Source of the DNA: Candidatus Latescibacterota bacterium
GTDB lineage: Bacteria; Latescibacterota; UBA2968
Direction of reading: 5' to 3'
Length of the DNA: 64,000 nt
Assembly (NCBI GenBank): GCA_965204745.1
Contig: OZ242010.1
Span: 1,216,001-1,280,000, forward strand
Part shown: positions 15,340-41,503 of the stretch, in pieces
Layout: the number at the start of each line of letters is the position of its first letter
Position numbering within the stretch: the stretch's first letter is position 1
The notes under the pieces: generated by a model
Told to the model about the DNA's origin: nothing
Database searches by the model: none
What the model saw: the letters and a program-made list of their open reading frames with translations, nothing else
Position numbers and translations under genes: made by a program

Positions 15340-15612
15340 TCGTTAAAACGACCACAAAACTCGCCAGCGGCGCCATGCTTTTGGGCAACGAGACTTCAGA
15401 TGGCAAGTTAACGTCGTCGTTTGGCTTAGTCAGTGGTCAGTCCTCACCCATCCGCCACCCTTCGTCAGTCATGCAAAATAAAATCACTTCAGCTTTAACG
15501 TTGCAAAAAACGCCGTCTATATTCCCGTCGATTTGCAGGGTCGGCACGCCTTGTCGATCCGTTGCATATCACTTCCAACAGGCCACTTTTCTCACAATGA
15601 AAGGAGCAGAAT

Positions 15613-17031
15613 ATGGCCAAAACGCCTGAAGATGTCCTCGCAATGATCAAAGATGAGGGCATTAGAGTCGTTGACCTGCGCTTTACCGATTTTCCCGGGC
15701 ACTGGCAACATTTTACGATCAAGGCCTCTGATGTCGACGAAGAGACCTTCGAAGATGGGCTCGGTTTCGATGGCTCCAGCATTCGCGGTTGGCAGGCCAT
15801 CAACGAATCGGATATGCTCGTGATGCCCGATGCTTCCACGGCATTTATCGATCCCTTTTTCAAAGAACGCACGCTGGTGATGATCTCCGACATTGCGGAC
15901 CCCATTACCAAGAGCGGGTATTCGCGCGATCCGCGTTCGGTTGCCAAAAAAGCCCAAGCCTATTTGCAGTCCACGGGCATTGGCGATGTGGCACATTTCG
16001 GCCCGGAAGCCGAATTTTTTGTTTTTGACGACGTGCGCTTTAGCGAGGGTGCAAACCACGCCTCCTACAGCGTGGATTCCGTTGAAGGCTATTGGAATTC
16101 GGGCAGGGATGAAGGCCCCAACTTGGGGTATAAACCGCGCCACAAAGAGGGCTATTTTCCGGTGCCGCCCCACGATACACTGCAAGACATCCGCACGGAA
16201 ATGGTGCTGACGCTGGAAGATTTGGGCGTTGATTCCGAGATCCATCACCACGAAGTCGCAACCGGTGGTCAGTGCGAAATCGACATTCGTTATTGCCCGA
16301 TGGTCGAATGCGCCGACAAAATGGCGAAGTACAAATACATCGTCAAAAATGTGGCGCACAAACACGGCAAAACCGTGACCTTCATGCCCAAGCCCCTTTT
16401 TGAAGACAATGGCACGGGCATGCACACGCACCAGAGCATCTGGCGAGGCGATGAGCCGCTCTTTGCCGGTTCCGGCTACGCGGGCCTCAGCGAGACCGCC
16501 CTGTACTATATCGGTGGCATTCTCAAACACGCAAACGCGCTGATCGCATTGACCAATCCCACCACCAATTCGTTTAAGCGGTTGGTGCCCGGGTACGAAG
16601 CGCCGGTCAATTTGGCCTATTCGCAGCGCAACCGCAGTGCTTCGGTGCGTATCCCAATGTATTCGCAAAGCCCCAAAGCCAAGCGGATCGAGTTTCGTTG
16701 TCCAGATCCGAGTGCGAATCCCTATCTGGCGTTCTCGGCGATGTTGATGGCCGGGCTGGATGGCATTCAGAACAAAATCGATCCGGGCGAACCGCTCGAC
16801 AAAAACCTCTACGATCTCGAGCCCGAAGAGGCCGCATCCATTCCGCAGACGCCCGCATCGCTGGCCGATGCTTTGACCGCGCTGGAAGAGAATCACGATT
16901 TCTTGCTCAAGGGCGATGTGTTCACCGACGATGTGATTGAAACGTGGATCGCATACAAGCGCGAGAATGAGGTCGACGCGGTCAATCAGCGTCCCCACCC
17001 CCACGAATTCGCGCTTTACTTCGATGTGTAG
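15613..17031 (+). CDS. glnA: Glutamine synthetase type I
   Basis: [30 protein letters not shown] and the adenylylation motif NLYDL. Confidence 0.98.
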
Positions 17032-26405: not shown

Positions 26406-26483
26406 TGGGGTGAGTGAGGGGATTTGAACCCCCGACCTCCTGGGCCACAACCAGGCGCTCTGACCGACTGAGCTACACCCACC
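26406..26483 (-). tRNA. tRNA-His (GTG)
   Basis: GGTGGGTGTAGCTCAG...TTGTGGC...GGTTCAAATCC...CACTCACCCCA; G-1 and CCA are encoded. Confidence 0.96.
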
Positions 26484-26491
26484 ACACAGAA

Positions 26492-26565
26492 CACTCCCGG
26501 CAGGGCTCGAACCTGCGACCTACTGCTTAGAAGGCAGTTGCTCTATCCAGCTGAGCTACGGGAGC
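26492..26565 (-). tRNA. tRNA-Arg (TCT)
   Basis: GCTCCCGTAGCTCAGCTGGATAGAGC...CTTCTAA...GGTTCGAGCC; CCA not encoded. Confidence 0.95.
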
Positions 26566-36392: not shown

Positions 36393-38842
36393 TCAATGCG
36401 GCAAATAGTGTTCGTGCAGGTGATCCTTGGCGACGCCATCTGCGATCATGGCCTCGATATGCGCGTCATCATACCCCAATTCCCGCAGAATCTCTCGGGT
36501 GTGCGCGCCTTGTTTGGGGCAGGCGTAGAGCAGTTGAATCGGAGCGTTTTTCAGACGCACATAAGCCGGCGGCGCGAGATCGACCGCACTGCCGACCGGG
36601 TGATCCACAAAGCGAACAATGGCAATGGACCGCCCGTCATCCCATGCGTTCAGATCGTCTGCGGACACCTCGTGCAAATACCTGCTGCGAATGTCCTCGA
36701 GCGAATCGATGCGGTGCCCGGCCAACCCTGCATCGTTAAACAATTTGACCCAATGGGCCACCTCGCGCTGCGCGATCTTTGCTTCCAAAAATTTCTCTGT
36801 GCCCTCATCCGGCGCGTGTTCCAAGCCCGGGACGCGCCTCAATTTGTCGATCTCATGGCGTAGCCCACCCACAAAAACCCACCCATCCCGTGCGCGATAC
36901 ATGCGGTGCAAGGCGTGTTCGCCCATTGCATCTTGACCCGAAGGTTCATCGCCCGAGCACGCGCTTTGGCACGCAAACATAAAAGGCGCCTGCACGAGTT
37001 GCCCGCCCTGCGCGAGCGACGTGGTCACAAAATCCCCGCCATCCGGAACCCCGCTGCGCCTGCGTTTGAACAGCGCGAGCACCGCGCCATAAGTCGCTGA
37101 ATACCCCGTGATATAATCAATACAAGACGCCCACCCGTGCAAAATCGGTTTCTCGCCCGCGCCGCCGTAGCGCGTTTGAATGCCGGTCGATCCCTGAAGC
37201 AGAGGATCAAAGCCCGGGCGATTCATCCACGGCCCCGGGCGCGGCCCATGGAATGCCGTCAGGTTGAGATAGACGATATCGGGCTTGCACCTCTTGACCG
37301 AGTCGTAGTCAATGCCCAAATTTTCAGCCACCCCGGCCGGAAATTGTGGACGATCACATCGGCTGTTTCGACCAACTTCATAAACGCGGCCCTGCCGGTC
37401 TCTGCCTTCAAATTTAGGATCGCGCTACGCTTGCCGGGGCTGACCTCTATCGGAAACCAACTGGAAACGCGCGGGCCAAAATAGGGTTCGGGCGGATCGA
37501 TCTTGATGACCTCTGCACCGTATTCCGCCAACGTGCGCGCACTGGCCGGGCCGGCCAACACATTGGACAAATCCAAAACCCGAACCCCTTCGAGAATAGG
37601 CGTTGCCGGCACTGTTGCGACGTCCGGCCTGGGCTTGGGTTCAGCGCATCCGGCGAACGACCGCCGGGGTTTGGGAATGACGCAGTCCGCCGGGGTTTTG
37701 GAAAGCCACGTTTGCACGCCAAGTTGCCGCGTCGGCCCATACTCGGGATCGTCCACCACGACAGTCAACGCCGCCTCGTCCGTCTCGGCCTTGTGCAACC
37801 ACTCCTGCGCCGTGCGCTGAATCGTACACGGCACGCCCGCAGCAGTCAACACATCGACCCAGTGTTGCGCCGGTTCGCTCGCAACCACGGCCTCAATTTT
37901 CTTTCGCACCTTGCGATTCCACTCCCCGGACAAATGCGACGAATCCGGAATATTATTCGTCAGATGGAGATTGTCATACACCGGCGCATCGACCATGCCC
38001 TGCGCGATCAGATCGTCATACACCTCCAACGCCTTGACCAGGGATCGGCTGTTCCGCGCATGCCCGGCCGCGATGATGTACAGCCATTGCCCATCCCCTG
38101 CGAGGAACGAGCCGCTAAACGGCGACCCCTCGCCCCGGTTCTGGCGCGCGACTTTTCGCGCTGCATCCACCGGCAGGCCGTATCGCGCGGGTTTCTCTGC
38201 GGCATCCAACATAATCACAGCCATCGCAGACATGGCCGCGCCCACCAACGAAACCTCGATCACATCGCCCCGCCCGGTTTCTTCGCGCGCGTACAGGGCC
38301 AGGGTCGCGGCGATGGCCCCGTGAATCGCGCCATAAGTCGATCCCAATGGCATGGGCGTGTAAATGGGCCGCACGTCCAACAATCGGCGCGCGCTCTGCA
38401 AATCCGTGTATTGACCAATCGCCGCGCTGATAATGCCCTCAAATGCGCGGATCGATGCTTTTTCATCCGCAGCGGCAAACCCCGGCAACGAGAGATAGAC
38501 CAAGCCCGGATTTCGTGCGGTCATCTCTTCCGCGCCCAATCCCAACCGACGCATGACCCCCGGGCGAAAATTCTCAATCACCACATCTGCCGACAAAACC
38601 AAATCCACGGCCCGCGCCCGATCATCCGCATCTTTCAAATCCAAGGTGACGCACTGCTTGCCCCGATTAAAAACCCCATTTACAGGGGTATCATAATCGG
38701 GCCTGCCCGGCCGATCCACCTTGATGACCTCGGCCCCCTGATCCGCGAGCAACATCCCGGCCAATGGCCCGGCGATATAATGCCCAAAATCAATGACGCG
38801 AACCCCGGTCAATGGCGCCTGCGTATCGCGTTCTCTGTCCAT
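36393..38842 (-). pseudogene. Double-domain CaiB/BaiF class III CoA-transferase with a 1-nt frameshift
   Basis: Two 'GVRV(I/L)D...AGP...GAEVIK' domains. NFRPG|VAENLG is split between frames at the C4 run 37331-37334. Confidence 0.85.
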
Positions 38843-38953
38843 CCCTGTCTCCTCTTGGTGTTTTCGTGACCCGAATAATAATGCGTTTGGGTCGAGGGGG
38901 TTAGTAAAAAAACGATCTGAAAATTTGAGGATGGGCAGGGTGAAGAACTCCGT

Positions 38954-38981
38954 GTTGGGGCGAATAATTATTTGCCCCAAC
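38954..38981. repeat. REP-like 28-bp palindrome
   Basis: GTTGGGGCGAATAATTATTTGCCCCAAC; sister copy at 47892-47919. Confidence 0.75.
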
Positions 38982-39050
38982 TTTGAACTGGCTGTCGCCA
39001 GTTGTACCCCCCCTTTTGTGCTTTGAACTGGCTGTCGCCAGTTGTACCCC
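38981..39050. repeat. 30-bp direct repeat, two copies, period 40
   Basis: CTTTGAACTGGCTGTCGCCAGTTGTACCCC at 38981 and 39021. Confidence 0.8.
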
Positions 39051-39147
39051 GCTCGTGCCTTTTGTGGCTATCTCCTTTACCCCACCTGCACGCCCCAATC
39101 CGCGTTCATCCGCTTCATCCGCGATCCTTCTTTGAAAGAGATTTGTC

Positions 39148-39176
39148 TTGCAAACGCCCTGCCGATGCCGTATCAT
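39148..39176 (+). promoter_or_regulatory. Putative sigma70 promoter
   Basis: TTGCAA-N17-TATCAT directly before the structured leader. Confidence 0.6.
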
Positions 39177-39182
39177 AGCCGT

Positions 39183-39426
39183 GCGTATTTCAGAGTCTAA
39201 CCGCTGGAAGTGGCCCTGGCAGTATCGGCAACTTCCAGCCGGTTAAATGCTATGGTTTCGGCTTCCGAAAGGACCGAACTCAATCTTTTATAGACTCTGA
39301 GTACGCGGCCTATGGCGTTTAACCGGCAAAGCCCAGAAATCCACCGGGTGCCGTAGGCTTGGCACTCGGTATTTTTTTAGACATTGACCGGGTGTCAGCA
39401 ACAACAGGACACGCGGTATTTTTTTT
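39183..39426 (+). ncRNA. Unclassified structured RNA or leader with alternative pairing and two tandem terminators
   Basis: Closing stem 39183-39199/39291-39306, two internal hairpins, competing helix 39238-39255/39309-39327, terminators at 39343-39378 and 39387-39426. Confidence 0.65.
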
Positions 39427-39439
39427 GAGGAGACTCGCT

Positions 39440-39571
39440 ATGTACACCACACACCAGCGGCAAATTCATCGCCATCGTTGTCACGGTAGCCCGCTTGCTC
39501 AACGCCTCAATTTGAGCATTGCCCCCACATCCACAAAAGGTCTGCACGCCGCGCTCATGGTTAATTTTTAG
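39440..39571 (+). pseudogene. 43-codon ORF, likely scar of an outer-membrane protein gene
   Basis: GAGGAG RBS; C-terminus LSIAPTSTKGLHAALMVNF parallels FSIGLAPDRNGNLAAIATLRF of the next gene. Confidence 0.45.
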
Positions 39572-39583
39572 TGCGGGATTCAC

Positions 39584-41045
39584 CACTTATTCAACAGGAG
39601 GAACACATGGCACGTCTCGTTGCAATCGTTTTGATTTTGGGCATGTACCGCCCAGATACACTGCTGGCAGGGGTGGTTTTTGAAGCCGGGGAAATCGACA
39701 GCAATGCGGTTCAGCCCGGCGCGTTTGTCGAGGTTATCTACGGCCAGGGCGTGCGGCATTCGGACACGGGAGCGTGGGAAAAGTTGGAGACCGTGCGCGG
39801 CTATCTCAAAGCCCTGGATGCAGAGCATATCACCATTGGCGGGCGGTTTTGGCAGAAGGAGATGGCGGCTGAGCGCGTGCAAAAGTTGACCGTTTTGGAT
39901 TCTGAACGCCCGGCGAGAAAGTCCGCACTCGCGCGGGTCGAGAACAACGCGCCTTCAGAAGTGGTGAATTGGTATTCGGATGAACGCGCAAGGCAGGTGA
40001 TCGTTGCCAAAGGCCGATATGTCGAAGTGACGTATCGCGGCGCGTATGGCGAGACCGAGATTGCAGAGGGGTTCGTCCGAGCGATAGATGAAACCGAACT
40101 GGCGATTTACCGAGGCGGCTGGCGCCAGACGATTTCGCGGGATGGGATCGACGTTCTCATCGTCTGCGATAACCCGAGCCAACTTCGACAGGCCAAGCGC
40201 GTCACAGCCCGAGGCGAGAAAAGAGATGAAAACAGATCGCCCCACATTTTCTCACCATTGTTGGAAAACAGATCATCTCGCATTTTCGCAAAATTGTTCA
40301 CTGGCTTTGCTACCGGAGGGGTTGGGTATTTGGTTGGTAGCAGAATTGGTAGCCTGACTGGTGAAGGTGGATGGGATACCTTTGGGGCCGCAATTTTGGG
40401 CGGGGTCATCGCCTATACGGTAGGAGTGCCAATCGGCGTTAGCATAATCGACCCACATGATCAACCTGTCAAAACAGCGGCCGGTAGTTTCATGGGATTC
40501 GGTGCTGGCATTGTCATTTACTCCCTCAACCAAGAGTATTGGCAAATGGCCTTTATCTGCCCGCTCGTCGGCGCCGTGATTATGTCCGAAAGGTCACACA
40601 ATACCCTTATCGTCCGCCAGTTTTCTATCGGCCTCGCCCCTGACCGCAATGGCAACCTAGCGGCCATTGCCACACTGCGGTTCTAACCGGCCCTCAAAGG
40701 GTCAGGCACTTATTCAACAGGAGGAACACATGGCACGGCTCGTTGCAATCGTTTTGATTTTGGGCATGTACCGCCCAGATACACTGCTGGCAGGGGTGGT
40801 TTTTGAAGCCGGGGAAATCGACAGCAATGCGGTTCAACCCGGCGCGTTTGTCGAGGTTATCTACGGCAAGGGCGAGCGCCATTCGGACACGGGAGCGTGG
40901 GAAAAGTTGGAGACCGTGCGCGGCTATCTCAAAGCCATGGATGAAGAGCATATCACCATTGGCGGGCGGTTTTGGCAGAAGGAGATCGCGGCTGAGCGCG
41001 TGCAAAAACTGACCGTTTTGGATTCTGAACGCCCGGCGAGAAAGT
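39584..41045 (+). repeat. 339-bp near-identical direct repeat (39584-39922 and 40707-41045)
   Basis: Covers the RBS and first 105 codons of both tandem genes; identity ends abruptly after ...ERPARK. Confidence 0.92.
39607..40686 (+). CDS. Exported/outer-membrane protein A (shared N-module plus Gly-rich hydrophobic C-domain)
   Basis: AGGAGG RBS, signal peptide, C-terminal beta-signal-like ATLRF. Confidence 0.75.
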   Translation: MARLVAIVLILGMYRPDTLLAGVVFEAGEIDSNAVQPGAFVEVIYGQGVRHSDTGAWEKLETVRGYLKALDAEHITIGGRFWQKEMAAERVQKLTVLDSERPARKSALARVENNAPSEVVNWYSDERARQVIVAKGRYVEVTYRGAYGETEIAEGFVRAIDETELAIYRGGWRQTISRDGIDVLIVCDNPSQLRQAKRVTARGEKRDENRSPHIFSPLLENRSSRIFAKLFTGFATGGVGYLVGSRIGSLTGEGGWDTFGAAILGGVIAYTVGVPIGVSIIDPHDQPVKTAAGSFMGFGAGIVIYSLNQEYWQMAFICPLVGAVIMSERSHNTLIVRQFSIGLAPDRNGNLAAIATLRF

Positions 41046-41503
41046 TCCCATTCGAGATCGGTGCAAACCTCCTGTCCATCCAAGTTTGGGACGCTGAAAG
41101 CAGGTGGACAATCATCCGTTTGGGAGGGGGAGATGGATTAACGGATCCCTCATTCTACATCTCCAGTTTCATTTTTGACCAAATGGCCTTTGACCTTGCA
41201 ATGGGGCTTACCTCCGTGTCCAGAGGAAATGGCGGAAGTTCGCGGACTTTATGGACGGGACACAGTGGGATCACGTACTTTCTGCAAGAGGGAAACGCAC
41301 CTTATGTCAAGTCTTTTGCGACAATTTGGGGCGGTAGTGGATCCGATTCCTCATTTAGTGCGGGTGTAGGCATAGGCTATCGCCATGTTGTCCAAAACAT
41401 AATGGCCCTCAGATTCGAGGCACGGTACGTGCGCTTGCTCGAAGCGAGAGAGAACCACATCAACATCCGCATGACCTTTGGCGTCGTTCTGGGAGGGAAA
41501 TGA
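40730..41503 (+). CDS. Exported/outer-membrane protein B (shared N-module plus small beta-barrel-like C-domain)
   Basis: Same RBS and N-terminus as protein A; amphipathic strands AGVGIGYRH and LRFEARYVR. Confidence 0.75.
   Translation: MARLVAIVLILGMYRPDTLLAGVVFEAGEIDSNAVQPGAFVEVIYGKGERHSDTGAWEKLETVRGYLKAMDEEHITIGGRFWQKEIAAERVQKLTVLDSERPARKFPFEIGANLLSIQVWDAESRWTIIRLGGGDGLTDPSFYISSFIFDQMAFDLAMGLTSVSRGNGGSSRTLWTGHSGITYFLQEGNAPYVKSFATIWGGSGSDSSFSAGVGIGYRHVVQNIMALRFEARYVRLLEARENHINIRMTFGVVLGGK

Follow-up and report, generated by a model that had tools for sequence, protein, structure and literature searches.

Antisense RNAs of the C4/CI type mature from a leader through RNase P, which yields a free RNA of about 80–90 nt that acts in trans. 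In the account of CI given in PMC4825925, the CI RNA of phage P4 is processed from an untranslated leader and pairs with seqA upstream and with seqC downstream, leading to premature termination. The descriptions of P4 CI and of Gifsy-1 IsrK/STnc1160 in PMC4825925 and PMC3632133 agree in this layout, in which an RNA cut from an untranslated leader pairs with an upstream site of the same transcript and controls premature termination, and the comparison in PMC3632133 equates C4 with P4 CI and IsrK with seqA. C4 and c4-a1b1 are listed for Proteobacteria and phages in the table of Weinberg et al. (PMC2864571), and the c4-2 RNA is called 'likely a distant homolog' of a known RNA in its entry in PMC5737381.

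We analysed a stretch of 64,000 nt (the window), which covers positions 1216001–1280000 of a single-contig Latescibacterota genome of 5.48 Mb. On its plus strand, to which the features below belong, positions 39148–39426 comprise a promoter-like site, a three-helix fold of 125 nt, a long competing helix and two terminators in tandem. The RNA is present once in this genome. Relatives contain 20 further full copies that retain every one of these elements, so the locus is more than a chance arrangement. The locus is a conserved structured RNA gene, which lies in the chromosome ahead of ordinary cargo genes and belongs to a previously uncatalogued RNA family without an Rfam entry. In the full-text literature, none of the matches listed was a Latescibacter paper on small, antisense, noncoding or structured RNA, and the matches for Latescibacter together with antisense were unrelated, as judged by title and the start of the abstract.

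The RNA has two conserved, mutually exclusive folds

Transcription of the RNA would start from a sigma-70-like promoter, TTGCAA-17-TATCAT, which was located by motif scan at 39148..39176. This was the sole plus-strand sigma-70-like site in 38800–39700, and both strands of this interval together held 3 sites, compared with 0.6 expected. Transcription probably begins near 39183, about 7 nt past the promoter and at the first paired base of helix P1, and the predicted transcript would run from there to T1 or T2, with a length of ~195–245 nt. Among the relatives, the pattern TTGNNN-16/18-TANNNT was found by regular expression at the promoter position in 16/19 full copies. Copy L016 also has a promoter-like site at the same place, that of L025 was recognised by eye, and the promoter of L011 reads TTTACG-17-TATAAT. 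Strict sigma-70 criteria miss most of the RNA's own promoters in the relatives, so that a scan of the downstream stretches with these criteria says little.

The minimum-energy folds of 39178–39310 and 39178–39430 contained P1, P2 and a GAAA-capped P3 (z −5.7 and −5.0, respectively), and for these segments 0/200 shuffles folded equally well. In this fold, termed state A, the 5' arm of P1 (39182..39199) pairs with 39291–39307, as supported by the folds and a comparison of 21 copies, and the P2 hairpin follows at 39200..39245 (folds and alignment). The upper part of P2, CTGGAAGT/ACTTCCAG, is compatible with both states and forms helix 1 of the 21-copy alignment, with 95% of positions paired and both-side changes in 3/6 pairs; the base of P2 (39238–39245) is shared with the outer stem described below. 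P3 (39257..39278) is present in both states according to the folds, the alignment and the comparison with C4/c4-2, and corresponds to the tetraloop hairpin of these RNAs. Downstream of P3 lies a variable segment (39279..39307), delimited by the alignment, the arm-loop comparison and a phage P1 control, the 3' part of which (39291–39307) is the 3' arm of helix P1 in state A.

Helix P1 joins the first ~18–20 nt of the transcript to an internal loop and measures 16–20 bp in 21/21 copies. The 5' arm is hypervariable, with a mean pairwise identity of 0.38, against values of 0.89 in each strand of the outer stem and 0.43 in the spacer. Since arms of this variability make P1 impossible to align, each 5' arm was compared with every loop instead. 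The results showed that cognate arm-loop duplexes averaged −25.1 kcal/mol, compared with −13.0 kcal/mol (sd 5.9) for non-cognate ones. The cognate loop ranked first in 11 copies, 2nd to 4th in 9 and 11th in one (L019). Ties with identical loops accounted for 7 of the 9 intermediate ranks, and in L005 and L008 the cognate loop was outscored by a nearly identical one that shares its P1 type. In the copy from another genus, the P1 sequence is unrelated yet still paired. A search for the complement of L019's odd loop in its own genome returned the self site only, and a search of the 5.48-Mb genome for targets of either P1 arm returned only the arms' own sites, the next best match having at least 3 mismatches in 17 nt.

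The second fold, state B, is closed by an outer stem, the 5' strand of which ('region 1' of a c4-like fold) lies at 39238..39256 and the 3' strand ('region 2') at 39308..39327, as found by repeat and fold analysis and by alignment. Folded alone, 39238–39330 reached −41.8 kcal/mol (z −6.4). We aligned the 21 full copies (alignment A1), and the RNAalifold consensus consisted of upper P2, the 19-bp outer stem, P3, a 3-bp mini-hairpin with a large loop, and T1, which differs from the fold proposed in the first-pass annotation. The mini-hairpin is formed within the variable segment (39279–81 with 39299–301) and is followed, after its large loop, by a single-stranded junction; its pair at alignment columns 115/133 is CG in 16 copies and UA in 4. 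The outer stem (helix 2 of the alignment) has 19 pairs, which were paired in 99.2% of cases over the 21 copies and included compensatory changes, and the copy from another genus keeps this stem despite further changes. Across state B as a whole, 96.8% of 1005 cells were paired and 10/48 pairs were changed on both sides. None of 500 column shuffles reached the observed score or percentage paired, and when the partners were slid by 1–3 columns as a control, only 27–45% of cells were paired.

No spacer separates the 3' arm of P1 from the outer 3' strand, and the outer 5' strand falls inside P1; the two helices would therefore cross and are mutually exclusive. These results show that the RNA has two conserved folds, of which one excludes the other. 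In constrained folding of the copies, state A with T1 and state B with T1 differed by a few kcal/mol; the copy in the window gave −83.5 kcal/mol for state A and −80.6 kcal/mol for state B, and state B was lower than state A in L008, L017, L019 and L021.

The RNA is followed by two intrinsic terminators. T1 (39343..39378) consists of a stem-loop at 39343–39370 and AU7 (−19.8 kcal/mol), and T2 (39387..39426) of a stem-loop at 39387–39417 and AU8 (−14.4 kcal/mol). T2 is a diverged duplicate of T1 and escaped the consensus scan owing to its 11-nt loop. Many relatives also show a second terminator, and the copy from another genus is without a U-tract terminator. The outer 3' strand has a possible alternative partner in the 5' half of T1, since 39309–39317 is complementary to 39349–39357. 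Over the 21 copies, 98.4% of the 187 cells of this candidate antiterminator were paired, compared with 22–46% in slid controls. These columns barely vary, so covariation is uninformative here (212/500 shuffles reached the score); no both-side change relative to the commonest pair was seen, and one pair is G-U in 13 copies, G-C in 5 and A-U in 3. The antiterminator pairing of the window reached −21.1 kcal/mol, against −19.8 kcal/mol for T1. In most copies, however, the terminator form of state A lay ~5 kcal/mol below its antiterminator form, which argues against an attenuator.

The promoter, a multibranch fold of ~125 nt with P1, P2 and a GAAA-capped P3, and two related terminators had all been proposed in the first-pass annotation; each was recovered at the same position, the fold by minimum-energy folding. 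A helix competing with P2 had been proposed as well and is the outer stem, whose conservation is borne out by the both-side changes reported above. It excludes the base of P2, as was suggested, but also excludes P1, by topology.

Distribution and relation to C4, c4-2 and CI RNAs

All 21 full copies lie in one Latescibacterota family, with up to four per genome. BLAST detected the element in 14/31 genomes of this taxonomic family, where copies are often clustered. With a core covariance model (R1), 13/151 genomes sampled from the phylum were positive, all of them in the same family (f1; 12/29 others), and 0/122 genomes from 13 other families gave a match. A degenerate core pattern returned 76 matches in a species-level genome collection. 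By eye, 23 of these were placed in the family, namely 21 labelled Latescibacterota or Latescibacteria, one 1-kb 'Poribacteria' contig and one 'uncultured bacterium', and the remaining 53 share the pattern alone. A pattern of this kind gave 1 match in metagenome contigs and 0 in viral contigs.

At gathering scores, the Rfam models matched two tRNAs only in the window, and the earlier statement that the RNA falls into no Rfam family is correct at these curated thresholds. Below threshold, the c4-2 model (RF02944, clan CL00128) matched 39247–39320 at 30 bits, against a cut-off of 41 bits (E 4e-4), and c4-2 was the only Rfam model that recognised the RNA. Genome-wide, this interval was the only match of c4-2 (E 6.6e-4). 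In five relatives, 10/10 c4-2 matches at E ≤ 1 fell on copies of the RNA (20.3–33.3 bits). Across the six genomes, c4-2 thus matched 11 RNA copies and nothing else, and neither the RNA nor the copies in relatives reached the gathering score. When twenty loci from relatives were scanned with Rfam at E ≤ 0.01, one sub-threshold c4-2 match was obtained (L016), and the Rfam isrK model gave no match at E ≤ 10. In the phage P1 control, the immunity region scored 68.8 bits for C4 (cut-off 45) and 51 bits for c4-a1b1.

The elements common to c4-2 and the RNA are UAUGG, the GAAA-capped hairpin, a second hairpin and CCUA; the c4-2 alignment omits 6 positions per closing-stem strand, and the stem is longer in the RNA. 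In the phage P1 control, the C4 consensus comprised a closing stem, a tetraloop hairpin, a large-loop hairpin and a single-stranded 3' junction. The same architecture of clan CL00128 (C4/c4-2), with a long closing stem, was found in the 21 copies. From the annotated a1, b1, a2 and b2 sites of phage P1 together with its sequence, b' was placed in the large loop and a' in the junction, and the variable segment, with the 3' arm of helix P1, covers exactly these positions. Compared with C4 (RF01695) and c4-a1b1 (RF03163), the RNA shows the same order of promoter, upstream complementary site and closing stem. Its 5' arm lies at the place of a1/b1 in the same antiparallel order, like a fused a1/b1, and by this analogy would be the counterpart of seqA in P4 and of the a1/b1 sites in phage P1. 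An upstream complementary site, as described for C4 and CI, is thus found in 21/21 copies, with cognate-specific pairing.

Other features set the RNA apart from C4. Its pairing is one continuous helix of 16–20 bp from the 5' end of the transcript, whereas C4 uses two sites of 7–8 nt. It is without a2/b2 over a downstream ribosome-binding site, without icd/ant and without prophage context, and two intrinsic terminators come directly after it. Its host is a member of the Latescibacterota, whereas the table in PMC2864571 has C4 for Proteobacteria and phages. As in P4 CI and IsrK, the upstream complementary site lies in the same predicted transcript, here as known from the sequence. The terminators are placed after the RNA, whereas in P4 CI they lie between the upstream site and the RNA. 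No downstream target resembling a2/b2 or the seqC of P4 CI was found when the loop was compared with the 450 nt downstream at 20 loci (−20.2 for cognate and −20.0 for non-cognate combinations).

In the terms of classical attenuators, the outer 5' strand, the outer 3' strand and the 5' and 3' halves of T1 would represent regions 1, 2, 3 and 4, which may pair as 1:2 with 3:4 or as 2:3. Unlike in the classical cases, the choice would be set by the long-range helix P1, which excludes 1:2 by topology, and not by a ribosome, tRNA, ligand or known protein.

These results indicate that the RNA is very probably a structured RNA related to the C4/c4-2 clan. We regard it as a variant of the c4/CI kind, which shares the architecture and the upstream pairing but fails on model score, downstream target and phage context. 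The c4/CI-like antisense attenuator proposed in the first-pass annotation is favoured by the c4-2 matches and by the helix layout of phage P1 C4; an adjacent downstream complement was not found.

Downstream genes and alternative readings

Behind T2, the motif GAGGAG precedes a 43-aa ORF (39440..39571, ATG at 39440), which, as read from the sequence, falls within the leader that separates T2 from the first real gene. This ORF had 0 Pfam or PHROGs matches and is probably no gene. GAGGAG had been taken for the first ribosome-binding site, and it does follow the terminators, but it opens this ORF without matches, and the convincing gene starts at 39607. That gene (39607..40686, 359 aa) has an AGGAGG ribosome-binding site. 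A repeat of its 5' UTR and first 300 nt occurs at 40707–41006, before the next gene (40730–41503). The gene is a member of a modular multigene family specific to the lineage, which is present in 19/31 genomes of the taxonomic family and reaches 28 matches in one of them. Its product matched no Pfam, PHROGs or protein-atlas family (best atlas score 0.86), and the earlier assignment of the RNA to surface-protein genes is unproven for the window. The neighbours in the window include CoA-transferases, a subtilase/fn3 protein and a TRAP transporter. The Pfam and PHROGs scans of these neighbours (PHROGs: seven nearby ORFs) revealed no phage genes, in agreement with the first-pass annotation, and none were found among 50 ORFs near copies in relatives (23 + 27). 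A type I or type III toxin–antitoxin system was also considered and rejected, as there are no tandem RNA repeats and no hydrophobic stretch was seen in the 43-aa ORF.

In relatives, the genes that surround clusters of copies code for ankyrin, LRR, WD40, WG-repeat and AAA proteins. The products of the first downstream genes are ankyrin-repeat, cadherin/fn3/Big, dockerin+LRR and CARDB+dockerin proteins, as well as PEGA and Bor-like lipoproteins and an FGE-sulfatase-like protein; an IS256-type transposase is the next gene once. These cargo genes are mutually unrelated and without a common pathway. The RNA is co-oriented with the next ORF of at least 150 aa in 21/23 occurrences, and upstream genes occur in either orientation; the 23 cases are kin copies, but their loci and cargo differ. 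Between the terminators and the cargo gene, most relatives have a second conserved element as well as a promoter-like site. The promoter-like site (TTGCAT-17-TGCAAY, by eye) and a ribosome-binding site directly precede the cargo gene, and the second element has a terminator on the opposite strand. In relatives with this element, the cargo may be independent of read-through. The stretch 39440–39600 was considered as a decayed second element and rejected, since neither BLAST nor nhmmer (14-copy profile) found anything there or genome-wide.

The strong promoter and the two tandem U-tract terminators of the window would equally fit a stand-alone, stable small RNA that ends at T1 or T2, with the downstream genes transcribed independently. 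P1 would then merely close the molecule, guard its 5' end and drift freely, the outer stem would be an alternative or processing-related fold, and the partner would be a protein or an RNA, for example the second element adjoining the RNA in relatives. State A with T1 is the minimum-energy fold, or close to it, in most copies, and the unrelated cargo genes, together with the promoter-like site and ribosome-binding site that directly precede the cargo in relatives beyond the second element, are consistent with this explanation as well. We nevertheless consider it rather unlikely. The co-orientation with the next gene in 21/23 cases and the lack of any other promoter-like site before the window's gene speak against it. 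A purely structural helix leaves the full turnover of P1 unexplained when the other long helix is 89% identical, the mirroring of the outer 5' strand in the 5' half of T1 is likewise unexplained, and neither arm has a trans target in the genome.

A riboswitch-like or protein-responsive attenuator, in which a ligand or an RNA-binding protein at the core (P3, junctions) would shift the balance between P1 and the outer stem and hence termination at T1/T2, appears quite improbable, because the conserved nucleotides lie mostly within helices and not in junctions, the downstream genes have no common pathway, and the similarity to an antisense RNA clan is reproducible. It would agree with the coupling of two conserved alternative folds to a terminator and with a position upstream of the next gene in the same orientation. 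The core is strongly conserved (0.89 identity), but with one taxonomic family as its range this conservation says little. Typical riboswitch P1 stems are far shorter than the 16–20 bp of helix P1. Multiple copies, inverted repeats and the truncated or rearranged copies L012, L018, L014 and L022 would also be seen with an element acting at the DNA level, such as a REP- or MITE-like repeat or an attC-like recombination site with DNA hairpins, and the outer stem of the window contains GTTAAAT and GTTTAAC, which we take to resemble integron core sites. However, these core-like sites are in reverse attC order and mismatched in most copies, the helices tolerate G-U pairs, as those of an RNA would, integrase or transposase context is absent except for the one IS256-type insertion, and viral contigs held no match. 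The terminal inverted repeat, P1, is variable and the interior conserved, the opposite of a MITE, and the promoter and U-tract terminators are conserved on one strand; on these grounds the MITE, REP and attC explanations were rejected as extremely improbable.

Proposed mechanism and its meaning for the family

We propose that the RNA is a domesticated, self-addressed c4/CI-type transcription attenuator of the co-oriented downstream genes, a reading by analogy to which we assign a probability of about one half. In such an attenuator, P1 would form first during transcription and lock out the outer stem. The outer 3' strand, now free, would act as an antiterminator by pairing with the 5' half of T1, and polymerase would read on. 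If the 5' arm were occupied, P1 would fail, the outer stem and T1 would form, and transcription would stop. The 5' arm would most likely be occupied by another molecule of the RNA, made and processed earlier, through its exposed variable loop, as in phage P1 C4 and P4 CI. In the minimum-energy state A this loop is hidden by its own 5' arm, so action in trans would need processing. The hypervariable P1 would provide each copy with its own address, and paralogous copies in one genome would operate without cross-talk.

A further reading, which is unlikely and offered as speculation, is that a phage-immunity circuit was domesticated as a portable, individually addressed 'lock' before accessory genes, with each ~20-nt P1 code silencing its own leader only. 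If true, such locks would allow per-gene negative feedback or one-gene-at-a-time switching without a protein regulator, and through chimeras such as L019 one locus would gain control of another. The accessory genes concerned encode ankyrin, LRR, cadherin/fn3 and dockerin proteins, lipoproteins and lineage-specific secreted families.

The C4/CI-type RNAs known so far are immunity regulators of Proteobacteria phages and satellites, and here the same architecture is found in the chromosome of an uncultured phylum. What is new is its occurrence in up to four copies per genome, with no phage genes and ahead of diverse accessory genes, many of which encode eukaryote-like or secreted proteins. Should self-addressing fail, the locus still defines a new and well-supported family of structured RNAs that conserve two alternative folds. 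If self-addressing is true, the RNA would be a compact, protein-free, programmable termination switch with its specificity in ~20 nt, and would be of interest to RNA biologists, for gene regulation in symbionts and for the design of orthogonal regulators.

A second conserved element beside the c4-like RNA in relatives

In relatives carrying a copy of the c4-like RNA, the structured leader RNA under study, we observed another conserved element of ~130-190 nt, lying 60-250 nt 3' of the c4-like RNA terminators. Of the 15 loci searched with BLAST, 14 contain it (for example L016, at 1770-1960, and also L004, L007-L011, L013, L019-L021, L023, L024 and L096), while neither BLAST nor a profile search found it in the genome of the window, and an Rfam search with it returned zero matches. 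The element comprises two covarying hairpins. Its opposite strand carries a terminator and a promoter-like TTGATT-17-TACATT, and these sequence features suggest that the element encodes a convergent small RNA; however, certain G-U pairs point instead to the plus strand. In the main group, 11 nt in the loop of the element are complementary to the 3' strand of the outer stem of the c4-like RNA, a match that may be due to chance.

Rearranged and neighbouring copies

Several copies of the c4-like RNA were found to be rearranged, namely L012/L125 (genome G011), L018 (G027), L014 (G016) and L022 (G021). L012 and L018 retain the promoter, the 5' arm (the first ~20 nt of the transcript), P2, the outer 5' strand and P3; in both, a gene whose product has a NucS_C-like domain now takes its ribosome-binding site and start codon from what was the 3' part. 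The L014 copy is truncated, ending after P3, and L022 carries an insertion of ~130 nt within the variable loop, the partner of the 5' arm in P1.

In genome G012, L019 (C1:5468149-5468293) lies 5 kb from another copy, L024. The 5' arm of L019 pairs with the loop of L024 at -28.1 kcal/mol, compared to -17.4 kcal/mol with its own loop, and a genome-wide search found no other occurrence of the complement of its own loop in this genome. L019 could be a product of recombination or a copy in decay; alternatively, its leader may be addressed by the RNA of its neighbour. At L115, also in G012, a 36-nt sequence resembling a CRISPR repeat occurs twice (15403-15438 and 16036-16071). The two occurrences, 633 nt apart, enclose small ORFs directly downstream of one c4-like RNA copy.

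Repeats, neighbouring genes and possible habitat of the window copy

Upstream of the promoter in the window, a 30-nt direct repeat with an internal palindrome, CTTTGAACTGGCTGTCGCCAGTTGTACCCC, occurs at 38981-39010 and 39021-39050. It is a genome-wide REP-like element, with 269 copies on both strands (≤4 mismatches allowed), frequently in pairs spaced ~38-40 nt apart; the repeat is not an operator of the c4-like RNA promoter. Downstream, a 300-nt direct repeat (39584-39883 and 40707-41006; 97% identical) spans, in each of two neighbouring genes, the 5' UTR, the ribosome-binding site and the first ~92 codons. The two genes are members of a modular, lineage-specific multigene family, which has 6 matches in the genome of the window and up to 28 in one relative. 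Elsewhere in the 64-kb window, two adjacent tRNA genes (26409-26565, minus strand) were the sole Rfam matches at the gathering score.

The DNA sequencing runs containing at least half of the words sampled from window 38900-40300 came from three studies, of which two carry the label sponge metagenome; the run with the largest share of these words may derive from the source sample, and the 19 runs listed include no RNA run. Cargo genes of the ankyrin, LRR and WD40 types, which accompany c4-like RNA copies in relatives, would be consistent with life in association with a host.
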